Shown here one piece after another: positions 1 to 43,200 of a DNA stretch of 64,000 nucleotides. This stretch comes from Bacteroidales bacterium (lineage in GTDB: Bacteria; Bacteroidota; Bacteroidia; Bacteroidales; DTU049): positions 9,013 to 73,012 of the forward strand of contig JAAYOU010000039.1 in NCBI GenBank assembly GCA_012520175.1. Direction: 5' to 3'. How positions within the stretch are numbered: position 1 is the stretch's first letter; every line of letters begins with the position of its first letter. The notes under the pieces were generated by a model that searched no databases, had not been told where the DNA came from, and saw only the letters and a list, made by a program, of their open reading frames with translations. The position numbers were made by a program, and so were the translations under genes.

Positions 1-1362
1 CAACGTTATTGGTTTACAGTTGAAGAAGCAAAAATAAAATTTGACACCCTTAAGACTCGAAAGAAATGGAGTGCGGACGGAATTAACTTTTCACAATTTC
101 CACAACTTAAATACCTACCTAAACAATATGTTCCTCCTGTTGAAGGAAATCGTATAAACCATATCCTTAAAAATAATTTTCACAATGGTTCTTATATAAT
201 AGAATTCTTTGATGAAATTAAATTAAATCATAGCTTTATTTTAAAAATAGATTCATTATCAAAGTATAACAAACTATGCGAAAAAATAAAGGAACATGTC
301 CCAATAGACCTATCTGTTGTTCGTGACAGAATAGGAAATTTTATTTTTCAATTTCCTGTAACCATAATTGAAGCACATTCAAAAGCACTTTCTACTTGGG
401 ATGGTGTTGATATGAGTTTTTCATGGCATAATTCTTTTTCTCATACAAGTATTCCAGACTGCTTAATACAAGTAGGATCTACACTTGACAAGAATTATAT
501 GGGTTCTACAATTACAGAATACAATAAAACTAACAAGCAAAAAATAATTATAGGAAATCTTGACCAAATAAATCACATAAAAATTTGGAGAAAAGAGCCA
601 AGTTTAATTTTATCTACTTTTAGTGGAACATACTTTCGAGATTTTCATTTGGATAAGAGAATAGTAAATCCAGAACCAAGAATATTTGAAATAGACGGGA
701 ACAAGGTTAATGTTCAAATTTCCTCTAGGGAGAATCACGGTAATAAAAAGAAAACACCAGCATACACAGACTATATATCAAACAATCTTTACGATGTCGA
801 GAAACAACAATTAGCAAAGAGATTAACCTTCAAACAATACAACAATTCTCTTTCAGAGGTTGCGTTAAACGACATAAGAAAATTGATTAGAGAAAAAGAT
901 AAAAATGGTGTGTGTTTGTGGGATCCATTTTTGACTTCAATAGATATTTTAAAAACGCTTTATCATTCACCAACGGCAAATGTAGAAATAAGAGCGATTG
1001 GCTCTATCAATAAAACTACAAAAAGGGTTTATGAACAAAAAAAACAATTGGAGACAGATATTATTGCAACATATAAATCTGTTTTAGATAACCCCAATCA
1101 TAACAATTACGGCTTAAATCTTGAATTCCGCATTCAACATTCAAATTATGGCTGGGCATTTCACGATAGGTTCCTTATTTTCCCAGGTAGCGAATTGAAA
1201 AGACCGCAAGTTTATTCTCTTGGCACTTCAATAAATTCATACGGAAATACTCATCACATTTTACAAGAGGTTTCACACCCACAACCTGTTGTTGATGCAT
1301 TTAATGAATTGTGGGATAAATTAAATCACCCTGATTGCTTGGTATGGAAGTTCCCGAAATGA
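1..1362 (+). CDS. Hypothetical protein, 5' end outside the window; C-terminal region has a degenerate PLD/HKD-like nuclease signature
   Basis: Frame 1 is open from nt 1, with no in-frame stop before the track ATG at 412. The 316-aa track ORF is therefore only the tail of a protein of at least 453 aa. The C-terminal ~150 aa read VCLWDPFL...VEIRAIGS...WAFHDRFLIFPG...YSLGTSINSYG (His codon 1162-1164). This resembles single-copy HKD/PLD-fold nucleases, but Arg sits at the Lys position and the spacing is atypical. No other motif recognised. Confidence 0.6.
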   Translation, partial: QRYWFTVEEAKIKFDTLKTRKKWSADGINFSQFPQLKYLPKQYVPPVEGNRINHILKNNFHNGSYIIEFFDEIKLNHSFILKIDSLSKYNKLCEKIKEHVPIDLSVVRDRIGNFIFQFPVTIIEAHSKALSTWDGVDMSFSWHNSFSHTSIPDCLIQVGSTLDKNYMGSTITEYNKTNKQKIIIGNLDQINHIKIWRKEPSLILSTFSGTYFRDFHLDKRIVNPEPRIFEIDGNKVNVQISSRENHGNKKKTPAYTDYISNNLYDVEKQQLAKRLTFKQYNNSLSEVALNDIRKLIREKDKNGVCLWDPFLTSIDILKTLYHSPTANVEIRAIGSINKTTKRVYEQKKQLETDIIATYKSVLDNPNHNNYGLNLEFRIQHSNYGWAFHDRFLIFPGSELKRPQVYSLGTSINSYGNTHHILQEVSHPQPVVDAFNELWDKLNHPDCLVWKFPK

Positions 1363-2834
1363 TATTAACACAAGCGTTGTCTAAAAGCAATTCCTATTCT
1401 TTTAATGTAGAATTGAATAATCTTTTAAAGAAACTTGAGAGCAAAACACTTGAAAAAATTCTTAGTGCCGAAGAAGATGAAGAAATATGCTCAATAGATA
1501 ATAAGATTCGAGATATTGTAACTCAAACAATACATTTTAGTCAGAATTCAGAAGACAACAAGATTGAAAATATCGCACAAATTATTTTTTCCACAAAAGA
1601 ATATCTTCGCAAAGGCATTTCAAATGGAGACGTAAAAGCTATACTAATCTTTCTTAGCGTAAATTGTTACTTGCACGTAGAACTTGAAAAGTTACTTTCT
1701 CTAAGCGAGTTGGAAAACAGTCACACAAAAATTATTTCCGAAAAAATTATAGAGGTTTTAAAAAGTATTAAATTATCAGCCCAAGCACTACCAAATGCGC
1801 CATACTGGGAAAAAGAAATCATGAGTGAATCTCAAAATGGATTTTCAGAAAATGACATTTCTAAAACATATGGATTTATTGAATCTTTCGAATGCGATGG
1901 CAGAGGATTTCATTTCAATTTTCTATTAGAAAGTTTAATCTCATTTCTATTTCATTTAAATTATACTTATTTCCTCAACGCTCTATCGCATTTACAAAGT
2001 CCGTTTGAATTTGTCTTTTATTTTCAGAGTCTCAAAAAAGAAAACCTTTTGAAAGTAGCGAACGAATCTTCACTTTCAAATAAATGGCTAAATTTTGAGC
2101 TTATTCGTCAAATTATTGAAAAGGAAAGTAAAGAAACTATTGATAAATCAGAGATAGAATGTATAAAAAATGTTCTTGATAGAATTAAACTTAGCGATTT
2201 TAATTTTTTAAAACAGACAGTAACTTATTTTCATAGAAGTAGATTATTTAATGCTTCATTGGGAGTATTTTTGGTATCAGTCAATAATGTGGAAATGGAA
2301 GAAATAATATTAGATTTTTCCATTGATAAATACGCTTTTCATATTGAAGCAAGAGATGTTTTATTAGATTATTATAAAAAACACGCTTCAGATGAGCAAC
2401 TTGACTTATTTCTTGAAGTAATTTTCAATAAATGGAAACATTACTTTTACAACATTCTCACAACGGAAGATTTTTATCACAACGGTATTTTGTTGACAGA
2501 TTTTGCAAACTACGTAGTTCACTACCATATACGCAAAACGGCTGATAATGATTTAATTTCTTCAATGGAAAACTTGATACAAAAAATTAAGTTCATTGAC
2601 TCTGAATGGTCAACTTCCAGTTCTCAACAGCTAACAAAATTTCACTTGTATCATTCAGAACTGTATTTACTAACGTACGCTTACAAATACAAAAAGCTAA
2701 ACACCCCTCAAATGTTAACGAATTACGAAAGCATTATAAATGATCAAGTTCAACGTTCACGTTATTTATCAAATGAAACGCAACAACTTTTGGAGATAGG
2801 AAAAAATAATATTGACTGGACAAAAGACGAATAA
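1359..2834 (+). CDS. Hypothetical protein, predicted all-alpha, no recognisable catalytic motif
   Basis: Long ORF (track 1335..2834). The ATG at 1359 overlaps the upstream stop as ATGA (atg 1359-1361, tga 1360-1362), which suggests translational coupling. An alternative ATG lies at 1344. The sequence is rich in Leu/Glu/Lys/Phe helical segments with no signal peptide or TM. Confidence 0.6.
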   Translation: MILTQALSKSNSYSFNVELNNLLKKLESKTLEKILSAEEDEEICSIDNKIRDIVTQTIHFSQNSEDNKIENIAQIIFSTKEYLRKGISNGDVKAILIFLSVNCYLHVELEKLLSLSELENSHTKIISEKIIEVLKSIKLSAQALPNAPYWEKEIMSESQNGFSENDISKTYGFIESFECDGRGFHFNFLLESLISFLFHLNYTYFLNALSHLQSPFEFVFYFQSLKKENLLKVANESSLSNKWLNFELIRQIIEKESKETIDKSEIECIKNVLDRIKLSDFNFLKQTVTYFHRSRLFNASLGVFLVSVNNVEMEEIILDFSIDKYAFHIEARDVLLDYYKKHASDEQLDLFLEVIFNKWKHYFYNILTTEDFYHNGILLTDFANYVVHYHIRKTADNDLISSMENLIQKIKFIDSEWSTSSSQQLTKFHLYHSELYLLTYAYKYKKLNTPQMLTNYESIINDQVQRSRYLSNETQQLLEIGKNNIDWTKDE

Positions 2835-2944
2835 AATAACGACAAATGAAATACGAAAGACAGAAAAGCCACAAACCACTAACATAGGCTAAAATCAAGC
2901 GAGAGAAAGTGCTAATTTGAAAGGCAGTGCTACTAAAAAACTTC

Positions 2945-3273
2945 ATCGCAGTTTGAAAGCGACTGTCGCCACGTAACTATCTATGTATCAACAACTTAGG
3001 AGGAACCGCCACACAAAACTATTGCCGCTGTAAACACCTGAGTATCAAGGACTTAGGCGGGCGGACACAAAAAGCTACTTCTGCCACGTAACTACCTGAT
3101 TATCAATGAGTTACGCCACCATTTCGACGCGACTCAATGAGCGGCAACCATGCAACCACCTGATTATCAGCAACTTACACAAACAAAGCGAGCGAACAGC
3201 GAGCCACAACTAAAAACTCAACACTAAGCACTAAAAACCACCTCGCAACTCCCTGACTATCAATAGCTTATAT
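2945..3273 (+). repeat. Modular extragenic repeat array, locus A (5 units of the 29-nt TGATTATCA palindromic element plus a terminal module)
   Basis: Units at 2972-3000, 3029-3057, 3087-3115, 3151-3179 and 3244-3272, all in the same orientation. Consensus is YRYAACYN-NN-TGATTATCA-R-NNNN-TTASR. The best copy is 3087-3115, CGTAACTACCTGATTATCAATGAGTTACG, with 7-bp outer arms CGTAACT/AGTTACG. Spacers are GC-rich (GCCGCC, GGCGG). The module CCACAACT...CACTAAAAACCA at 3204-3240 is shared with loci C and D. The last unit ends 2 nt before the stop codon of minus-strand gene 3274-6084. Related sequence (CAAGCGAG, ACTAAAAAAC, TTTGAAAG) may extend the element left to about 2850. Confidence 0.85.
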
Positions 3274-6084
3274 CTAATCCTCTACCTCACCATCATTACT
3301 AAAACAAATTACGCCATTATATGGGCAATAAAGGCAATTTTGTTTGTTTGTAGTTGCTTTAAATTGCTGCTCTTTGGAAAAAATTTCTTCTAAAATGCTA
3401 ATGCAATAGTTTGAAAATTCTGCTATTTCTTCTTTTGAAAAAACTTTAACATCATTTTCATTATCATAGATTACATCAGGCTTATAGCCATTTTTATTCA
3501 GCACAGAATAAATTCCGCCAGAAATTTTGTTCACATTATTAGAAGCCGAATACAGCCAGATATAAAATAAAACTTGAATTAAATATTGATTGTTTTTATT
3601 GAATAAATCAGCTATTTCAGAAGATTTCTTTTCTAAATTAAGGTCAAAGCGTTTATAAGTCGTTTTGAAATCCATTATATAATGAATGCCGTTCCTCACC
3701 TCAATTCTGTCTGCAATACCTTTTACTTTTACGATAGTTCCATCTTTCAAAGCAACATCAATGTCCAAACCATATTCCAAAGCCTCTAAATAAAAGTCAT
3801 TTGGAATATTTTCCGCCGATTTCTTCAAAAAAACATTCAGCGCGTCAAAAAGCAAATCCTTTACTAAAAAATTATATCCACTCTCAAAATGCGCCACTTC
3901 ATGTGTTATAAAAGCATCATTTAAGTTTTTTTCAACCGATGAAATCATTGAGTCAAAATCTTGTTTCAGCAAAACTCGCTTCAAATAAGGTTTTGAAATA
4001 TTTTCAATCGCTTCATGAAAAATATCGCCCATCGTATTGAACTGAATATCAGCATTTTTGTTTTCCCATTCCTTTATTTTATACACATTTTCCAAAAGGA
4101 ATTTATACGGGCATAAAACAAAATTAAAGAAAGCAGAAAAAGAAATCCCTTTTTGAGCCAATTCCTTCAATTTATTCTCTTTATCTTTTAAGGTAGAAAT
4201 ATTTTCAAGAGAATTTTCGCCATTGTATCCAATATCCAAGCTAATGCGATTGAAAGCGATATTTGAACTAGCCGGCAACAATTCATGCTCGATTTGAGCT
4301 ATATATCTCGAAGGTTCTTTCCCGAAAAGTGCGTCTGGCTCTGTATTGTAGATTATAACAATGTTTTCCGCACGTTGAATTAATCGCCAAAAATGATAAG
4401 CGTAAACCGAATCTCTGTCGCTTTGCAATGGCAGCTTCAATGCTCTGCGCAAATCTACAGGCAAAAACGAATCTTTATTCGCCGCAGCGGGCAAATTACC
4501 TTCATTAGCTCCGACTATAATTACATTTTTAAAATCTAAAGAACGAGTTTCGAGCATTCCTAAAATCTGAAGCCCTTTTATAGGCTCACCTTTCAAAGGA
4601 ATTTTCAACGATTGAATTTGGCGTTTTACGAAATACGAAAAAGCTAAAATATTTATATCCTTGTCTATATCATGCTTTTGAAATGTATTTATTAAAACAT
4701 TTAGCATTGTACGCATTTGCCAAGCAGCTTCATGCTCAATTTCTATTTCCACAGACCTTTCAAAAATCATGTCCATTTTAGAAATCAGCATCTCTGCAAT
4801 TGATTCCCAAGAATTATATGGAGAAAACAATCCGTTTGTAAGCTCATTAACTCGCTGTAACAAAGCGGAATCTTCTCTATTTTCGGCATTCCAATAAAAA
4901 AATCTAAATTTTCCCGAAGATATTACTTCGACACACTCTCTAAACTCGTGTATTTTGTCATCCTGAACAAGTAAATTCACTAATGGATTGGCTAACAGAG
5001 CTGAAAACGCATCGAAATGAAACACTATATCGCCTTTGCTGTGGCTTATAGCGTTAATCATTGCAAAATAATTTTTTATAAACTGCCCTGCAAAAGTATT
5101 CACCAAAGGAAAACCGCCTGAAATATTAACCTTATTGCTCCATTCGTTAGGCAAACTACTCAGCAATGGCATTAACAAAGACTCATCAGCAAGGACTAAA
5201 ACTGTATCGCTGAATTTATCAGAATAATCAGATTCTAATTTATTTAAAGCAACTTGTATCTGAGAGTAGCCCAAAGGAGCGCCAATAACCTCAATGTTTT
5301 TTTCATTATTTTTTATATGCTCCGCTGGTTCTTTAAACGTATCGGACCAAGAATAGCGATTTTGCCTCAAAAAATGTCCCGCTTCATGACTGAGATTATT
5401 CAAATACCACTTATCTGCATCCCAGACCATATCAGCTTTTCCATTTTCCAACAACAAGTCTATATGTTTTTTAAGCGAAGGAGTAATGGCGTTCAGTCCC
5501 GCAAAAATAACTTTAGAATATTCGTCAAAAGATTCTTTTTGAGACAACAACCTAGATGCAAGTCCTTGATAACCTATTTTATTTTCAATACAATTAGACG
5601 TAAACACCTCGTAAATAGGATGCAATAATTTATAAAAGCTCAAATATTTTTTCTGCAAATCAGTATTAGCCTCGCCGGGATACCAATTTTCTATTTCTCT
5701 AATTTTAAATAAATGCGTAAAAACCTCATCGGGATTGAGCAAATAATCGTCAACATCGTTAAAATCAGCTAAAATAGTCCTTCCCGTTGGTATGAACTCA
5801 TCGATTGGGAAGGCGTTGTCTTTGGAATAATTTTTATAGACATTGTAAAGCAAGGCTAGCAAAGCTGTTTCATCAATTTTGCGAATTCCGCTTTGCGAAA
5901 AAATATATTCTTCAATCGTAATAATATTTGGCAGCAAAACGGTTTTCTTAAAATAAGCAGGAAGAGTTTTTTTTAAATACAAACCGCTTCTTCTGCCCGG
6001 CAGCACGATTGCAGTGTTTTTTAAATCGTCGCCAGATGTTTCATAAATTATTTTTGCAAGTTCATCAATAAAACTCATAAGCAA
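3274..6084 (-). CDS. PD-(D/E)XK nuclease family protein, AddB/RexB-like
   Basis: 936 aa. The C-terminal nuclease block has LCPYKFLLENV, GIADRIE, YIMDFKTTY (D-x-K) and QNCLYCPYNGVIC (C-x2-C-x6-C). This is the AddB/Cas4-type arrangement of one upstream Cys plus a C-terminal Cys triad. Confidence 0.75.
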   Translation of the reverse strand: MLMSFIDELAKIIYETSGDDLKNTAIVLPGRRSGLYLKKTLPAYFKKTVLLPNIITIEEYIFSQSGIRKIDETALLALLYNVYKNYSKDNAFPIDEFIPTGRTILADFNDVDDYLLNPDEVFTHLFKIREIENWYPGEANTDLQKKYLSFYKLLHPIYEVFTSNCIENKIGYQGLASRLLSQKESFDEYSKVIFAGLNAITPSLKKHIDLLLENGKADMVWDADKWYLNNLSHEAGHFLRQNRYSWSDTFKEPAEHIKNNEKNIEVIGAPLGYSQIQVALNKLESDYSDKFSDTVLVLADESLLMPLLSSLPNEWSNKVNISGGFPLVNTFAGQFIKNYFAMINAISHSKGDIVFHFDAFSALLANPLVNLLVQDDKIHEFRECVEVISSGKFRFFYWNAENREDSALLQRVNELTNGLFSPYNSWESIAEMLISKMDMIFERSVEIEIEHEAAWQMRTMLNVLINTFQKHDIDKDINILAFSYFVKRQIQSLKIPLKGEPIKGLQILGMLETRSLDFKNVIIVGANEGNLPAAANKDSFLPVDLRRALKLPLQSDRDSVYAYHFWRLIQRAENIVIIYNTEPDALFGKEPSRYIAQIEHELLPASSNIAFNRISLDIGYNGENSLENISTLKDKENKLKELAQKGISFSAFFNFVLCPYKFLLENVYKIKEWENKNADIQFNTMGDIFHEAIENISKPYLKRVLLKQDFDSMISSVEKNLNDAFITHEVAHFESGYNFLVKDLLFDALNVFLKKSAENIPNDFYLEALEYGLDIDVALKDGTIVKVKGIADRIEVRNGIHYIMDFKTTYKRFDLNLEKKSSEIADLFNKNNQYLIQVLFYIWLYSASNNVNKISGGIYSVLNKNGYKPDVIYDNENDVKVFSKEEIAEFSNYCISILEEIFSKEQQFKATTNKQNCLYCPYNGVICFSNDGEVED

Positions 6085-6815
6085 AATTCCTTATAATATT
6101 TATTTACAAAATCATCTGCTAATTTCAATGTTTCTGGCTTCCCAACATCAATGTAGTTACAAAAAACCTTATATGATTTTATTGTTTTTTTTGCAGCTAA
6201 GTCAAGAAATGCAGGAATTAAGCCAAACGCGCCATTTCTATCTATATCGCATGGCAATTTGGGGTTTACTACACAAATGCCGCAATATCCTAATTTTTCT
6301 TTGTAATCAGATTTACCTTCCACAGAAATAAATTCGCCAGAAGTCTCATTAATCCAGCCCGACAATAAGCCTGAATTGTCAAAAAACAATTTCCGAGATG
6401 ATTTGCGGTCTTTTACAACTAATAATGCATCGGGATTTGTTCGCAAAAACTCAGATTTCAAGTCAAAGAAGTCCAAATTGCTCAATATATCTACATTATG
6501 CACTAAAATAGGTTCATTTCCATCTAGCAATTTTGCAGCTTTTTTCAATCCCCCGCCGGTATCGAGCAAAAAATCCGTTTCATCTGAAATTTTAATATTT
6601 AAGCCTTCTATTTTTAAATTATTGATAAAATCTACGATTTGCTCAGCATGATGATGCACATTTATAACTATATCGCAAATAGAATAATATTTTAATTTAA
6701 TTAAAAGCCATCCCAATAAAGGTTTTCCTGCAACTGAAACCAATGCTTTTGGCTTATTGTGAGTAAGATGACCCAACCTTGTTCCTAAACCAGCAGCAAA
6801 AACAATAGCTTTCAT
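6075..6815 (-). CDS. Nucleotidyltransferase family protein (sugar-1-phosphate nucleotidylyltransferase, MurU-like)
   Basis: N-terminus MKAIVFAAGLGTRLGHLTHNKPKALV carries the GxGTRL...K nucleotide-binding signature. It overlaps the downstream AddB-like gene by 10 nt. Confidence 0.8.
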   Translation of the reverse strand: MKAIVFAAGLGTRLGHLTHNKPKALVSVAGKPLLGWLLIKLKYYSICDIVINVHHHAEQIVDFINNLKIEGLNIKISDETDFLLDTGGGLKKAAKLLDGNEPILVHNVDILSNLDFFDLKSEFLRTNPDALLVVKDRKSSRKLFFDNSGLLSGWINETSGEFISVEGKSDYKEKLGYCGICVVNPKLPCDIDRNGAFGLIPAFLDLAAKKTIKSYKVFCNYIDVGKPETLKLADDFVNKYYKEFCL

Positions 6816-6931
6816 GAGTTTTTTGTATGTTTTTTTATAAAAAAATCTAATCTATACAAATTAAAATAAAAAATACGTTTTAAAAAAATTATCTTTGCTA
6901 AAAATAAATTTTTGTTTTTCGATAATTATGG

Positions 6932-6961
6932 TTTGTAATTCAAAAAATATTTATATCTTTG
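6932..6961 (+). promoter_or_regulatory. Bacteroidota-type sigma-A promoter for rplU-rpmA (-33 TTTG, -7 TATCTTTG)
   Basis: TTTG at 6932-6935 and TATCTTTG (TAnnTTTG) at 6954-6961, 18 nt apart and about 44 nt upstream of the rplU ATG. A second TATCTTTG lies at 6890-6897. Confidence 0.5.
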
Positions 6962-7004
6962 CACTCCGTTTTAAAAAAGAATTTAGAATTAACACATAGA
7001 AACA

Positions 7005-7682
7005 ATGTACGCAATTGTAGATATAGCTGGACAACAATTTAAAGTTAACAAAGCTGGAAAAGTTTATGTTCATCGTTTGCAAGCCGAAGAAGGCAGCCAA
7101 ATAGAACTAAAAAACGTTTTATTAATAGATAATGACAAAAATGTTGAAGTTGGGAAACCAACAATAGCTGGTGCACATGTATTGGCTGAAGTTGTAGAAC
7201 ATTTAAAAGGCGACAAAGTATTAGTTTTCCACAAAAAACGTCGTAAAGGTTATCAAAAGATGAACGGACATCGTCAATATCTTACACGATTGAATATTTT
7301 ATCAATTGTTAAAGACGGTGTAAGCCTTACTGGAGACAATGCTCCTTCTGTAAAAAAACAAGTAAAAGAAGCAGCTCTAGCAAAAACAAAGAAAGAAAAA
7401 ATTGTTGCTAATAAAGAAGTTGAAAAAGAAGTTACTGCTGAAAAGAAAGCTGCTCCTAAAAAAACTACTACAACAAAAACAGCAGAAAAAAAAGCTGATA
7501 CCACTACAAAAAAAGCAACTACTACTACAGCTAAAAAAACAACCTCTACAACTAAAAAAGCAACCACTACAACTAAAAAAGCAACTACTACTACAAAGAA
7601 AGATGCTACTACAACAACTAAGAAAACAACAGCTACAGCAAAAAAAGAAGATGGAGATAAAAAATCAACATCAAAGGAATAA
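7005..7682 (+). CDS. rplU: 50S ribosomal protein L21 with a long Lys/Thr/Ala-rich C-terminal extension
   Basis: MYAIVDIAGQQFKV...HRQYLTRLNI is a canonical L21 domain (~103 aa). It is followed by ~120 aa of low-complexity KKATTTT-type repeats. Confidence 0.95.
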   Translation: MYAIVDIAGQQFKVNKAGKVYVHRLQAEEGSQIELKNVLLIDNDKNVEVGKPTIAGAHVLAEVVEHLKGDKVLVFHKKRRKGYQKMNGHRQYLTRLNILSIVKDGVSLTGDNAPSVKKQVKEAALAKTKKEKIVANKEVEKEVTAEKKAAPKKTTTTKTAEKKADTTTKKATTTTAKKTTSTTKKATTTTKKATTTTKKDATTTTKKTTATAKKEDGDKKSTSKE

Positions 7683-7715
7683 TAAATTAAGTAAAACAAC
7701 TAAAAAAAATAAGAT

Positions 7716-7970
7716 ATGGCTCATAAAAAAGGTGTCGGAAGTTCAGATAACGGTCGTGAATCCCAAAGTAAACGCCTTGGCGTAAAAATTTATGGTGGTC
7801 AAGTTGCAAAAGCAGGCAACATAATCGTAAGGCAACGAGGAACCAAACATCATCCAGGTGAAAATATAGGAATGGGCAAAGACCATACTTTATTTGCACT
7901 CGTTGATGGAATTGTTGAATTTAATAAAACAAGAAACAATAAATCAGTAGTAAATATTAAGCAAATTTAA
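7716..7970 (+). CDS. rpmA: 50S ribosomal protein L27
   Basis: [24 protein letters not shown]...[26 protein letters not shown] is a textbook L27 sequence. Confidence 0.97.
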
Positions 7971-8001
7971 TTTTTACCTGCTTAAAAAAAAGGTTACTGT
8001 A

Positions 8002-8035
8002 AAAACACTTTTCTAATTGAAAAGTGTTTTTTTTG
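8002..8035 (+). terminator. Rho-independent terminator after rpmA
   Basis: 12-bp stem AAAACACTTTTC (8002-8013) / GAAAAGTGTTTT (8019-8030), loop TAATT, followed by a T-run to 8034. Confidence 0.8.
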
Positions 8036-8071
8036 TTGATGTTTTTTTAGATGTTTAATGCTCTGTCGCTG

Positions 8072-8268
8072 CATAACTATTTGATTATCAATATTTTAGA
8101 CAGACGCACCCATACAAAACAGCCCGCCACCACGTAATTACTTGAGTATCAGTGGTTTAGACATGACGGGTGCCGCCTCGTAACTATCTGATTATCAACA
8201 ACTTACGCGGAGCCGTCGCCAACACGAAGCCCGCCACCACGTAACTAATTGATTATCAGTATATTACT
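8072..8268 (+). repeat. Modular extragenic repeat array, locus B (4 units)
   Basis: Units at 8072-8100, 8133-8161, 8179-8207 and 8240-8268 in the same orientation, with GC-rich spacers. B2-B4 with their spacers (8133-8268) align by eye with C2-C4 (10296-10430). The array ends 21 nt beyond the stop of minus-strand gene 8289-9005. Confidence 0.85.
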
Positions 8269-8288
8269 ATTAAAAAACATACGTAAAG

Positions 8289-9005
8289 TTAGTGAGTTAT
8301 TTTATAGTTTAATTTTTTCCTCATTTTACGAATCTCTTTTTTAGACAAAAAACTTCTTTTTACAAAATCTTGATACAGGTATGGTTGTTCAAAATAGTCG
8401 TAATCAGCTCCTTTTGCATAAATTGGATTATTTATTCTATATGTTACAAAATAATTTGATATATCAAAACACATGAAGATATTTTCATATAACTTCGCTT
8501 TATTTTTATCTTGAATTTGAAATTGAATAGTTTTTAAGCCTAAAGTATCTTTAAAATTTATTGGCAAATTTGTTGCGAAAATAATTTCCCAGTCTTGAAA
8601 ATTGTAAATGAAGTATTTCTTAAAATTAGAATAGCCATAAATATTTTTACTAGATTTTTTAACAATTTCAAATAAAAATGAATACCATTCTTCAAAATCT
8701 AAATTTTCAAACCTTGAAAAATCGTATTTTTCATATACACTATCTTCTATAAGATTAGTAGGAACAGCTATTATAACAAACACGACATAATTATTTTTTT
8801 CATTTTTATTAAAATCTCTATTTAAATATTTTAAATAATATTGGAAAGCTATTTTTATTTTAAAATCAATGTCCTTTAGTTCAATAGCATTTATAGTTAC
8901 TGAATCTGTTGTTTCATCTACCTTGTTGACAAAAAATTGCCCATATATCGGTGTGCATAAAACACTTAATATAATTAAAAATAAAATTTTGCTTGCATTA
9001 ATCAC
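8289..9005 (-). CDS. Hypothetical secreted protein (paralogue of the N-terminal part of 8998-10110)
   Basis: N-terminal signal-like segment ILFLIILSVLCTPIYGQ. The block YSFLFEIVKKSSKNIYGYSNFKKYFIYNFQDWEIIFATNLPINF parallels FSLFYDVIIETLHKSKRSFFSDYKYYYNHNDIDVLISSKAPINF in the upstream gene. Very AT-rich by eye. Confidence 0.6.
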   Translation of the reverse strand: MINASKILFLIILSVLCTPIYGQFFVNKVDETTDSVTINAIELKDIDFKIKIAFQYYLKYLNRDFNKNEKNNYVVFVIIAVPTNLIEDSVYEKYDFSRFENLDFEEWYSFLFEIVKKSSKNIYGYSNFKKYFIYNFQDWEIIFATNLPINFKDTLGLKTIQFQIQDKNKAKLYENIFMCFDISNYFVTYRINNPIYAKGADYDYFEQPYLYQDFVKRSFLSKKEIRKMRKKLNYKITH

Positions 9006-10110
9006 GATTTCCCTCTCCTTCTATTTTATAATCTGTGTCCGGATAAATTATCTCAATTTCTGTTAAATAAACCTCTATAATTGCTGTTGTATTTTTTTTA
9101 ACTTTAATACCTTGACATGTATATGCGCTATATCCTATACTTTTAATTGTAACATTATAAACACTAGGATTCAACTCTAAAGAAAATTCACCATCATGAT
9201 TTGACATAGCATGATTTATTAATGTTCGATCACTATATTTTTTTACTTTTACTAAAGCAAAACGAACAGGTTCTTTAGTTTCCAAATCATATAATTTACC
9301 AATTATAGCAGAAGTGTCTGAATCAATATATTTAACTTTAAAGAAACTTCCTTCTTTTTCAATAACCTTATATCCATAATAATCTAATTCTGTTGATTTC
9401 GTAATTTCAACAGTCTTATAAAAATTATCACAATAAGATGTATCTGCAGGATTGTAAAAATGCAAAGCTTGATAAGATTCATCTTGATTAAACTGGTAAT
9501 ATGTAGCATTAGGAAAATAAGATGTAATAGTATCATTGTATTTTTCCATATCCCCTAGTTTCAACTTAGCCAAGTTTTTTTTTAAATAAAAATTAATTGG
9601 TGCTTTAGAACTAATTAACACGTCAATATCATTATGATTATAATAATATTTATAATCTGAAAAAAAAGATCGCTTTGATTTGTGAAGTGTTTCAATAATT
9701 ACATCATAAAAAAGAGAAAAATCTTGTTCTCTTGAAAAAATTGTATCCTTGTATAAAGAATCTATATAAGATTCTAAGAAATCAGACTCATGGCTTAATG
9801 AGCTTATAGCCCAATTAGGATGTATTTCAATAGAAATAAACATATCACTATTCATATGCAAGCTTCTTTTATTGCATACATTTATATGATTTATTAGCAT
9901 TTCTGATAAAATAGGGGTTAGAGTATCAATTTCACTAACATTGTATAAAACGTAATTTTTATATACATCTACATTGTAATTTTCATAATCGTAATTTTCA
10001 TAATCAATGTATCTCTTTTGTTTTTGGCTAAATAGTGTAGTTGGAATTACAAGTATAGCAATCAAAAAATATAATATTGCCTTATTTTTATCTTTTAACT
10101 TTATAATCAT
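8998..10110 (-). CDS. Hypothetical secreted protein with a C-terminal carboxypeptidase-regulatory-like (CarboxypepD_reg) beta-sandwich
   Basis: Signal/TM segment AILYFLIAILVIPTTLFSQ. The C-terminus IGKLYDLETKEPVRFALVKVK...SNHDGEFSLELNPSVYNVTIKSIGYSAYT fits the CarboxypepD_reg pattern. It overlaps the downstream gene by 8 nt. Confidence 0.6.
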   Translation of the reverse strand: MIIKLKDKNKAILYFLIAILVIPTTLFSQKQKRYIDYENYDYENYNVDVYKNYVLYNVSEIDTLTPILSEMLINHINVCNKRSLHMNSDMFISIEIHPNWAISSLSHESDFLESYIDSLYKDTIFSREQDFSLFYDVIIETLHKSKRSFFSDYKYYYNHNDIDVLISSKAPINFYLKKNLAKLKLGDMEKYNDTITSYFPNATYYQFNQDESYQALHFYNPADTSYCDNFYKTVEITKSTELDYYGYKVIEKEGSFFKVKYIDSDTSAIIGKLYDLETKEPVRFALVKVKKYSDRTLINHAMSNHDGEFSLELNPSVYNVTIKSIGYSAYTCQGIKVKKNTTAIIEVYLTEIEIIYPDTDYKIEGEGNRD

Positions 10111-10251: not shown

Positions 10252-10551
10252 CACAACTCTTGATTATAAACGTTTTACGCGAAGCAGCCGTGTCGCACAA
10301 CTAGTTGATTATCAGCGGTTTAGACAGGGCGGGCGCCGCCTCATAACTACTTGATTATCAGCAAGTTACACAGAGTCGCCGCCAATGCGAAGCCGCCACT
10401 TCACAACCCATTGATTATCAGCACTTTACGCAAGCAAGCGAGCTAATAGCGAGCCCCAACTATGTCTTATCCTGAAATAGGTTGACACTAAAAAACTAAA
10501 AACTAAACACTAAAAACTATTTCCCAACCACCTGATTATCAACAAGTTACA
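10252..10551 (+). repeat. Modular extragenic repeat array, locus C (5 units, terminal module and ACTAAAA heptamer tract)
   Basis: Units at 10252-10279, 10296-10324, 10342-10370, 10402-10430 and 10523-10551. The module GAGCCCCAACT...CACTAAAAACT lies at 10454-10518. It includes tandem ACTAAAAA/ACTAAAA/ACTAAAC/ACTAAAA at 10487-10519. The array lies 39 nt beyond the trxB stop and upstream of gene 8998-10110. Confidence 0.85.
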
Positions 10552-42519: not shown

Positions 42520-43200
42520 GGCTATGTCCTGAAAAGCATGTTATATTTTATTTCGCTTGTTGTGTTTTCGGTCGTTTCATATGGTTATGGTAACGTAAAG
42601 TGCTGATAATCAAGCAGTTACGTGGCTATGACTGCGGCGGCGTAAAGTGCTGATAATCACATAGTTACGTTTGCCCGCCTGCTTGGTGTCCGCACCAGCC
42701 TAAGTCGTTGATAATCAGAGAGTTGCAAGCCGCCGCCGCTTTGCCTGTCTTGCTTTGCTTGCCCGCGACCACCTAAATTGCTGATAATCAACAAGTTGTG
42801 TGTACTAGCTGATTTAAATTGGCTTTTCTGCAAAATTTTTTGTAAATTTTAAACTACAAAAAATTTTGCAGAAAAAATTAGCGGATAAGTTTTTTTGTGT
42901 ACCCTGTTTCGCTCGAGCCTGCGTAAACCACTGGTAATCAAGCAGTTACAAGTCGCCGACCCGTCCACCCACCTAAATCATTGACAATCAGGTAGTTACA
43001 CAACGCCGCCACAACTCAACACTAAAAACCATTTTGATTTCGGACTTTCCGCCATTGCAAGTCATTGATTATCATACAGTTACAGAGCAGCTGCGACTTT
43101 CAAACTTTACAAACCCTTCAACAAGTTCAGGGCATCGCTTTACAAACTAAGACCCAGCAAGTCCTTAATAAAAAAGCACTTACAAATCAATCCGTATTTT
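42520..43200. repeat. Modular extragenic repeat array, locus D (7 units in mixed orientation, terminal module, inserted hairpin and decayed half-units)
   Basis: Six units read TGATAATCA on the + strand at 42594-42622, 42641-42669, 42699-42727, 42772-42800, 42922-42950 and 42972-43000. One unit is in the opposite orientation at 43056-43084, preceded by the module CCACAACTCAACACTAAAAACC (43009-43030). The left edge CTATGTCCTGAAAAGC (42522-42537) resembles locus C 10460-10480. Positions 43085-43200 hold degenerate half-units. The array starts right after the stop of the symporter gene. Confidence 0.85.
42824..42875. repeat. Perfect 21-bp inverted repeat (52-bp hairpin/miniature element) inside array D
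   Basis: TTTTCTGCAAAATTTTTTGTA (42824-42844) and TACAAAAAATTTTGCAGAAAA (42855-42875) are exact reverse complements around the 10-nt loop AATTTTAAAC. Abutting flanks are AATTGGC (42817-42823) and AATTAGC (42876-42882). Confidence 0.9.

Follow-up and report, generated by a model that had tools for sequence, protein, structure and literature searches.

At the left edge of a 64,000-nucleotide stretch of DNA from a Bacteroidales bacterium (GenBank assembly GCA_012520175.1, contig JAAYOU010000039.1, forward-strand positions 9,013 to 73,012; this stretch at its full length is called the window below) lie two overlapping genes, ORF1 and ORF2. With moderate confidence, we interpret them as a self-contained, horizontally mobile two-gene conflict module, most likely one that serves anti-phage or anti-plasmid defence of the abortive or effector-activation kind. 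We infer this function for a pair that keeps together across bacteria and archaea, resides on plasmids and islands beside defence and mobility genes, and encodes in ORF1 a C-terminal domain predicted to adopt a PLD fold with an invariant H-D-R motif.

ORF1 and ORF2 are kept together as a two-gene unit

Reading frame 1 of the window has no stop codon before the TGA at 1360-1362 (453 codons from nt 1), and an earlier note on this DNA, made from its letters alone, had placed the real start of ORF1 beyond the edge. This was confirmed by a 100%-identical protein (P0001, from a Bacteroidales metagenome-assembled genome in which it is annotated as hypothetical) and by the upstream DNA missing from the window, which was supplied by biogas-fermenter metagenome contigs (L001-L004): complete ORF1 has 522 aa, of which 69 lie outside the window. 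ORF2 has 491 aa when counted from the ATG of the ATGA that it shares with the end of ORF1, or 499 aa from an upstream TTG. This start/stop overlap, correctly described in the earlier note, indicates that translation of the two genes is probably coupled. The motifs quoted in the earlier note were all confirmed in place, and coordinates of the two genes and their features are collected in Table 1.

Hundreds of homologues were found for each protein, so neither ORF is a product of chance, and the two lists of homologues shared contigs and neighbouring locus tags. In the 88 loci examined (from the genome of the window itself, from 4 plasmids and from 80 species genomes), the ORF that directly follows the ORF1 homologue was recognised by an iterated ORF2 profile in 79 of 82 cases. 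With the addition of one locus in which an IS630-family element splits the two genes, an ORF2-family gene accompanied ORF1 in 80 of the 84 loci that have a downstream region; co-occurrence of the two families had been proposed as a check in the earlier note. The exceptions comprised a locus with a pseudogenised ORF1 (L057), a locus whose downstream ORF is incomplete and close to the end of its contig (L049), and two further loci in which a downstream ORF of ~490-500 aa is either unrelated or diverged beyond the reach of the iterated profile, so that partner replacement or extreme divergence may be involved. These two profile-unrecognised cases come from Chitinophaga arvensicola (L031, 12173-13636) and from a Methanobrevibacter metagenome-assembled genome (L035, 7576-8790 and 11601-13109), the latter also carrying a second, weak ORF1-like ORF upstream (E=8e-6). 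The split locus is on the Bradyrhizobium barranii plasmid pBb323S2a (L007, 9651-10715), where the IS630-family element ISRj1 sits exactly between the ORF1-like and ORF2-like genes, which are uncoupled and both intact.

Of 62 pairs with both genes intact, 28 have a 4-nt overlap, and overlaps of 1-22 nt are present in most of the rest. Pairwise identities of the ORF1 and ORF2 genes correlate with r=0.94, so the two are co-inherited; ORF2 is the more diverged partner in 99.9% of comparisons, with a mean identity of 18% versus 35% for ORF1. A conserved third component was considered and rejected, as no further gene family occurred in more than 5 of ~80 loci, nor was any neighbour common to the window locus and the other pair loci. 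Since no neighbour family recurs, the module consists of just the two genes. A scan for sigma-70 promoters and terminators was uninformative.

The C-terminal domain of ORF1 is predicted to have a PLD fold of MIT_C-like type

The AlphaFold2 (AF2) model of ORF1 (pLDDT 79) comprises four parts, with a poorly modelled linker between the middle and C-terminal domains. When the C-terminal domain of this model (pLDDT ~75-90) was compared with the PDB using Foldseek, matches were obtained to NucT (6ehi_D, probability 1.0, TMt 0.51), to Zucchini (4gel_A, probability 1.00, TMt 0.42; 4gem_A, probability 0.99, TMt 0.42) and to polyphosphate kinase (PPK; 2o8r_B, probability 1.00). Judged from the model, the C-terminal domain thus has a PLD fold, in agreement with the PLD-like layout that had been read from the letters. 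Sequence-profile searches of the PDB with ORF1 and with the C-terminal domain gave nothing meaningful. A second, degenerate PLD lobe or internal duplication was also considered and rejected, with hhalign giving P ~0.2 when either of the two preceding domains was compared with the C-terminal one.

As the earlier note had observed, the catalytic-type motif of ORF1 departs from the HKD pattern: it reads H-D-R instead of H-x-K, and 20 residues separate the histidine from the downstream glycine, compared with about 12-13 residues in classical HKD enzymes. In 62 diverse, non-redundant relatives, W376-D377-P378, H457-D458-R459-F460, L476-G477, S479 and N481 were all 100% conserved, and W-D-P, H-D-R-F and G-x-S-x-N, with D377, H457, D458 and R459 included, were likewise invariant in 90 representatives of clusters formed at 50% identity. 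The H, R and N residues that had been singled out earlier are thus fixed in both sets. Because H-D-R is fixed across the relatives, the domain is under strong constraint, and is divergent and not decayed; of the earlier suggestion that this could be "a divergent or inactivated" nuclease, the first part stands and the second does not.

A 2025 analysis of the Menshen system reported that an acidic residue (D/E) after beta-2 together with HDR before beta-5 defines an MIT_C-like PLD clade, with the signature present in the predicted PB-PLD1 effector domain of Menshen NsnC, in the MIT_C domain of MITD1 and in many BrxL C-termini (PMC12065111). In ORF1, W376-D377-P378 and H457-D458-R459 supply both elements, and it is because this signature matches the clade that the C-terminal domain is filed here, on the strength of its motifs, as a probable PLD fold of MIT_C-like type. 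The C-terminal domain of human MITD1 carries WIEDPYI and IHDREIRF, as checked residue for residue against PDB 2ymb_A. When the profile of the ORF1 C-terminal domain was aligned with MITD1 using hhalign, WDP was paired with EDP and the two HDR motifs with each other, all 78 aligned columns being in register; the comparison gave P=0.0053 and 0.011 with an MITD1 alignment made up of vertebrate sequences only, whereas reversed and other-domain controls gave P=0.22-0.29. The structure 2YMB was not among the 50 PDB matches listed by Foldseek for ORF1. In Pfam, MIT_C (PF16565, "PLD-like domain at C-terminus of MIT") was first encountered as a sub-threshold match in one archaeal relative; it was matched by 2 of the 90 relatives at E 0.019-0.027, again below threshold, and not by the window protein.

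ORF1 accordingly shares with the MIT_C-like domains of MITD1, BrxL and Menshen NsnC (PB-PLD1) the predicted fold, an acidic residue that follows an early strand (xDPY), and the H-D-R motif. It differs in keeping an invariant G-x-S-x-N, which was not seen in MITD1, where the alignment stops before this region. Its architecture and partners differ as well: there is no MIT domain, no AAA+/Lon module as in BrxL and no NsnA or NsnB, nor does it match the Menshen or BREX models of PADLOC. With the single-domain HKD nucleases (Nuc/NucT, Zucchini and the catalytic domain of BfiI), which provide its best local structural matches, ORF1 has in common one PLD domain per chain and a Ser/Asn motif downstream of the histidine; it differs from them in reading H-D-R-F-L-I-F-P, not H-x-K-x4-D, and in its extra N-terminal region of 340 aa. 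ORF1 remains a putative nuclease, as the earlier note had it.

ORF1 belongs to a catalogued family with further conserved domains

The 453-aa fragment of ORF1 encoded in the window matched the NCBIfam family NF040700 ("VPA1262 family N-terminal domain-containing protein") with 234.5 bits (E=2.1e-69; curated cut-off 80 bits), spanning profile positions 31-478 of 478. By this profile match the family of ORF1 is already catalogued, though uncharacterised, and the window copy is for that reason no new protein family. The earlier description of ORF1 as poorly conserved had to be abandoned, given its place in a recognised family and its slower evolution compared with ORF2. Pfam gave nothing above threshold for ORF1, and PADLOC gave nothing. 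A Pfam AHH (HNH-type nuclease) match at E=0.077-0.1 was rejected as noise, being confined to 1 of the 90 relatives and to the low-confidence linker.

In the middle domain, a beta-sandwich in the model, local Foldseek matches were found to FN3/Ig-type domains (probability 1.0, TM 0.6-0.7 on the target). Of the 50 best Foldseek matches in the PDB, not one was attributable to the N-terminal alpha/beta domain, and matches over the whole length of ORF1 to GH2 enzymes (TM ~0.14) were discarded as meaningless. Both regions are strongly conserved in places: N122, K126, N128, K143, G181 and R296 were 100% conserved among the 62 non-redundant relatives, which come from many phyla, and D178, R179, G181, N182, Q186 and R296 were conserved in at least 94% of them.

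ORF2 is predicted to be an alpha-solenoid with no relative found outside its own family

The earlier note had described ORF2 as helical and had recognised no motif in it. Both statements held: the AF2 model of ORF2 (pLDDT 91.3, pTM 0.89) contains 28 helices, and the protein had no match in Pfam, PADLOC, NCBIfam, PHROG or the sequences of the PDB. A Foldseek search of this model against the PDB and BFVD returned nothing at E<1e-3, the best matches being generic ARM/HEAT-like solenoids with TM of at most 0.3. From the model, ORF2 is an alpha-solenoid without structural or sequence relatives outside its own family in these searches. Conservation in the wider family is limited to a handful of positions, consistent with a role that is not enzymatic.

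The pair is rare, patchily distributed and mobile

In a strict pattern scan, relatives of the pair were found in at least 135 of 185,579 species genomes (~0.07% of species). They were distributed over Bacteroidota, alpha-, beta-, gamma-, delta- and epsilon-proteobacteria, Clostridia, Halanaerobium, Treponema, Fibrobacter and Acidobacteria, as well as Melainabacteria, one bacterium of the candidate phyla radiation (CPR) and Methanobrevibacter archaea. An exhaustive hidden Markov model search of 1.84 billion representatives yielded 683 clusters at 50% identity (E<=1e-3), and the top 150 of these were all 242-585 aa long, without fused forms.

The pair was found on seven plasmids. A Rhizobium genome contig and an Agrobacterium plasmid have in common an island that contains it, with 95% identity over at least 13.7 kb, which indicates recent transfer of a composite island. 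The plasmid counterpart is pDG3-1b of Agrobacterium salinitolerans (L005), and the shared stretch holds two restriction endonuclease genes and a reverse-transcriptase-domain gene. In Rhizobium sp. R634 (NZ_LOKW01000023.1) the island is present twice (L081 and L082): the copies are 100% identical over more than 21.5 kb, both contain the pair, and they lie ~280 kb apart on the contig. The idea of a phage-borne module was rejected, as the phage collections gave a single match among 50,697 phage records and likewise one among 2.9 million IMG/VR contigs. The pair is thus rare, patchy and horizontally mobile, and moves as a unit; it is not a core operon, in line with the view taken in the earlier note.

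Residence beside defence and mobility genes was evident at many of these loci. In Agrobacterium the neighbours include the two restriction endonucleases and the reverse-transcriptase-domain gene mentioned above; in Aliarcobacter, an S subunit of a restriction-modification system, a DUF4297 protein, a reverse transcriptase and an integrase; in Bradyrhizobium, "mobile mystery proteins" and ImmA/IrrE; in R. etli, a CBASS cyclase and an S-4TM effector; and in Gluconobacter, a Phd antitoxin and a 1698-aa helicase. Further neighbours were DSR1 (E=3e-137), a protein with TIR and NACHT-C, an MkoA-like helicase, a DUF3584/JetC-like protein and a TrwC relaxase. Of the Pfam families found in the 112 nearest ORFs, phage integrase was the most frequent. 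Qualitatively, then, the pair resides in defence islands and mobile elements.

ORF1 and the VPA1262 family

The name of NF040700 refers to VPA1262, which in the literature examined figures only as an untested cargo ORF of V. parahaemolyticus VPaI-6, a GMT island. Against the profile for the whole family (NF040699, VPA1262 family protein, 1026 positions), ORF1 scored 25.9 bits (cut-off 325) and aligned over the PLD-like segment alone (positions 400-522), and neither ORF2 nor 7 of its family partners matched this profile. When the VPA1262F primer from the 2006 paper on the island was used as a DNA pattern on metagenomes, it led to a contig (L092, Ga0070724_10008413) with a single-chain VPA1262-family gene at 2689-5036 (NF040699, 760 bits; NF040700, 399 bits). 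Its protein carries WIDPYM, HDRMILI and LSNSVQ, followed by a long C-terminal extension, and hence the same W-x-D-P-Y, H-D-R and S-x-S-x-(Q/N) layout as ORF1; as cargo of an island, VPA1262 also resembles ORF1 in its setting. The gene on this contig adjoins an IS110-like transposase ORF.

VPA1262 proper differs in being a single chain of ~1026 aa with ~470 aa beyond the PLD-like domain, whereas ORF1 ends at residue 522 and is followed by a separate ORF2. The summed length of the pair (522 + 491 against 1026) is the one suggestive feature of the idea that ORF2 is the split-off C-terminal half of VPA1262. ORF2 was compared with the 252 aa available of the C-terminal extension on L092, with P=0.2 in hhalign and no hmmsearch match, and this candidate was set aside, the extension being unlike the ORF2 family and that family having no NF040699 match. 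Because ORF2 diverges very fast, the split-gene idea is neither supported nor excluded by sequence comparison.

Interpretation as a defence module and competing explanations

In the mechanism that we favour for a defence module, ORF1 would be the effector, combining a novel N-terminal alpha/beta domain with an invariant polar pocket, a beta-sandwich and a single C-terminal MIT_C-like PLD domain. Single-domain PLD enzymes form one active site across a homodimer, and for this reason ORF1 is proposed to act as a dimer; it would cleave or bind a phosphodiester substrate, most plausibly nucleic acid. ORF2, co-translated and probably non-enzymatic, would bind ORF1 through its alpha-solenoid, and would either hold the effector inactive until an invader-derived trigger arrives or provide a fast-evolving recognition surface. 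The trigger, like any protective phenotype, is a postulate of this scheme. A PLD-fold putative effector in a mobile, defence-type context invites comparison with Mokosh, DISARM DrmC and the pAgo-associated PLD proteins, which are defence systems using PLD-family effectors. Unlike these, it comes with neither a helicase nor a methylase nor an Argonaute, its sole partner being the novel alpha-solenoid, and neither protein matched their PADLOC models.

Several observations weigh against this interpretation. Neither protein matched any of the 5027 models of PADLOC-DB v2.0.0 at E<=1, so the search for known systems suggested by the earlier note returned none, and the literature searched gave no function for either protein. 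The evidence from neighbours is qualitative and comes from a sample of loci, in which many neighbours are ordinary genes; in the window itself, those downstream are housekeeping genes (L21, L27, an NTP transferase and a PD-(D/E)XK protein). The near-absence from phage collections is neutral for defence and removes one line of support. With respect to catalysis, the HxK(x)4D(x)6G(S/T)xN motif is absent, the sequence being H457-D-R459-F-L-I-F-P464...G477-T-S479-I-N481, in which R replaces K, an invariant P replaces D, and the spacing is longer. The Pfam PLD models did not match the window protein even at E<=10, and PLDc_2 (PF13091) matched 3 of the 90 relatives, all below threshold (best E 0.021); PLDc_2 and MIT_C were the only Pfam families matched by more than one of these relatives, the other weak matches being singletons. 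Enzymatic activity of MIT_C-type PLD domains is itself a hypothesis, none having been reported as shown (PMC12065111).

Among the competing explanations, the one that survives best, though we think it unlikely, is a selfish toxin-inhibitor (addiction) module in which ORF1 is a toxic PLD-type phosphodiesterase, ORF2 is its acidic inhibitor, and the two stabilise the plasmids and islands that carry them. Such a role would suit a pair that is borne on plasmids and islands, strictly paired and translationally coupled, that adjoins a Phd-type toxin-antitoxin system in Gluconobacter, and whose whole island has been duplicated and shared between replicons. The isoelectric points (pI) of the proteins also lean this way, being 9.0 for ORF1 and 5.3 for ORF2 in the window; ORF2 is acidic in 90% of pairs, and the pI of ORF1 exceeds that of ORF2 in 87%. 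A general contrast between a basic enzyme and an acidic inhibitor was nevertheless rejected, as the median pI of ORF1 is 6.7. The components of toxin-antitoxin systems are typically small, and a type II antitoxin usually has a DNA-binding autoregulatory domain. The two proteins here, at 522 and 491 aa, far exceed the usual size, the putative toxin is encoded upstream, and no HTH, RHH or AbrB domain was detected in either protein with Pfam or NCBIfam, so that the pair does not look like a type II system. In addition, ORF1 has ~340 extra conserved residues with an invariant polar cluster, which suggests sensing or regulation. The addiction and defence explanations overlap, the boundary between toxin-antitoxin and abortive-infection systems being blurred.

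It is less probable again, and on balance rather improbable, that ORF1 is non-catalytic and that its MIT_C-like domain binds membranes or phospholipids, giving the pair a membrane-associated accessory role in remodelling or, as an effector, in disruption. The closest motif match is the MIT_C domain of MITD1, which the title of Hadders et al. 2012 reportedly presents as a PLD fold that binds membranes, and the canonical HxK(x)4D is absent from ORF1. Against such a role, the residues H, D, R, S and N are invariant in relatives from many phyla, as is more typical of a catalytic or specific ligand site than of a surface that binds membranes generically, the structural neighbours are nucleases (NucT and Zucchini), and neither protein has a transmembrane or strongly hydrophobic segment (maximum KD19 0.86 for ORF1 and 1.36 for ORF2).

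A secreted polymorphic toxin with its immunity protein, deployed in interbacterial competition, is very improbable. VPA1262 is cargo of a GMT island, and VPaI-6 of V. parahaemolyticus also carries, next to VPA1262, the type VI secretion system (T6SS) effector VPA1263; but no secretion-associated or trafficking domain was detected in the pair with Pfam or NCBIfam, no secretion gene is conserved nearby, and carriers of the pair include Gram-positive Clostridia, CPR bacteria and archaea of the genus Methanobrevibacter, from none of which, to our knowledge, is a T6SS known. An ordinary lineage-specific housekeeping operon with some metabolic role is hardly credible, and largely refuted by the distribution: the downstream flank in the window and the G+C content of the pair (0.30, near the 0.32 of the window) would suit it, but a gene pair present in so few species, scattered over many phyla and archaea, found on plasmids and transferred islands and sharing no neighbours between loci would not be expected of it.

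Returning to the defence module, the two-gene unit, the HDR/MIT_C assignment, the novel fold of the partner, the bacterial-archaeal spread and the defence-island context were not found described in the literature searched or in PADLOC v2. The pair may be an undescribed immune system spread across bacteria and archaea whose effector is a catalytically active MIT_C-type (HDR) PLD domain like those of MITD1 and BrxL, a proposal that we advance tentatively and regard as doubtful in this full form. If it is true, the activity and substrate would be the first biochemical function for the MIT_C clade, and a prokaryotic defence effector could be linked to MITD1, recently reported as an interferon-inducible antiviral factor (PMC11962514). 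If the function is defence in any form, the pair adds a compact, self-contained two-gene system with a range from Bacteroidota to methanogenic archaea, and ORF2 would exemplify a confidently modelled alpha-solenoid without relatives serving as a sensor or regulator. With two genes, invariant candidate catalytic residues and cultivated hosts, it also offers a simple handle on the HDR branch. As an addiction module alone it would be of modest interest.

Features of the pair and its surroundings

Table 1 Coordinates of ORF1, ORF2 and nearby features in the window (nt; residue numbers refer to complete ORF1).
Feature	Position	Strand	Basis
ORF1, 3' part, residues 70-522 of 522 aa; putative effector	1..1362	+	open frame, identical full-length protein, NF040700
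ORF1 N-terminal alpha/beta domain (predicted), partial (residues ~1-175; window starts at 70)	1..318	+	AF2 pLDDT 80-93 in region
N-terminal conserved polar cluster N122, K126, N128, E137, K143; LKNNF motif	166-180 (LKNNF)	+	62 relatives, 90 representatives
RDRIGNxIFQFP strand	322..357	+	conserved
ORF1 beta-sandwich middle domain (predicted; residues ~180-310), after the RDRIGNxIFQFP strand	322..730	+	DSSP all-beta 182-307
ORF1 C-terminal PLD-fold domain, probable MIT_C-like (HDR) type (residues ~345-522)	826..1359	+	Foldseek, conservation
VCLWDPFL	916-933	+	W-D-P at 919-927
WAFHDRFLIFPG	~1156-1190	+	H-D-R at 1162-1170
LGTSINSYG	1219-1245	+	G-T-S-I-N at 1222-1236
ATGA start/stop overlap of ORF1 and ORF2	1359..1362	+	sequence
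ORF2, 491 aa, all-alpha, solenoid-like (predicted), acidic (pI 5.3); putative regulator, sensor or inhibitor of ORF1	1359..2834	+	AF2, pairing
936-aa gene, PF12705 PDDEXK_1	3274-6084	convergent to pair	Pfam
Further single copies of the palindrome	8180-8206, 10343-10369, 10524-10550, 42973-42999(-)		none expected by chance

Downstream, the pair ends, as the earlier note had it, at a repeat array and a convergent nuclease-like gene. The array, between ORF2 and the PD-(D/E)XK gene at 2969-3264, consists of five copies, spaced 57-93 nt apart, of an imperfect palindrome of ~27 nt (GTAACyACCTGATTATCAAyrAGTTAC). In addition to the single copies elsewhere in the window, the palindrome was found upstream in L001; it was absent from all pair-carrying loci of other organisms and corresponded to no Rfam family. 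It is dispersed through the host and looks like a REP-like element specific to it or a protein-binding site. As it is host-wide and absent from the other pair loci, its adjacency to the pair is coincidental; the array was rejected as a part of the module, and the earlier use of the repeats as a sign of a defence island is not sustained, the element being uninformative on defence.

Upstream of the window edge, 8.6 kb of the same genome hold an IS110 transposase, an OmpA-family gene and hypothetical genes, and the region looks like accessory or mobile DNA. In L001 the IS110 transposase lies ~7 kb upstream of the pair. Just upstream of the pair on that contig are genes for a 129-aa DnaJ-domain protein (6746-7135; E=2e-16) and a 265-aa hypothetical protein (7669-8466; E=8e-19), each matching a PHROG family of unknown function.

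Farther along the window, the L21 gene (7005-7682) encodes 225 aa, roughly double the usual length of L21, with a low-complexity tail of ~120 aa, rich in Lys, Thr and Ala (KKATTTT-like units), after the L21 domain.

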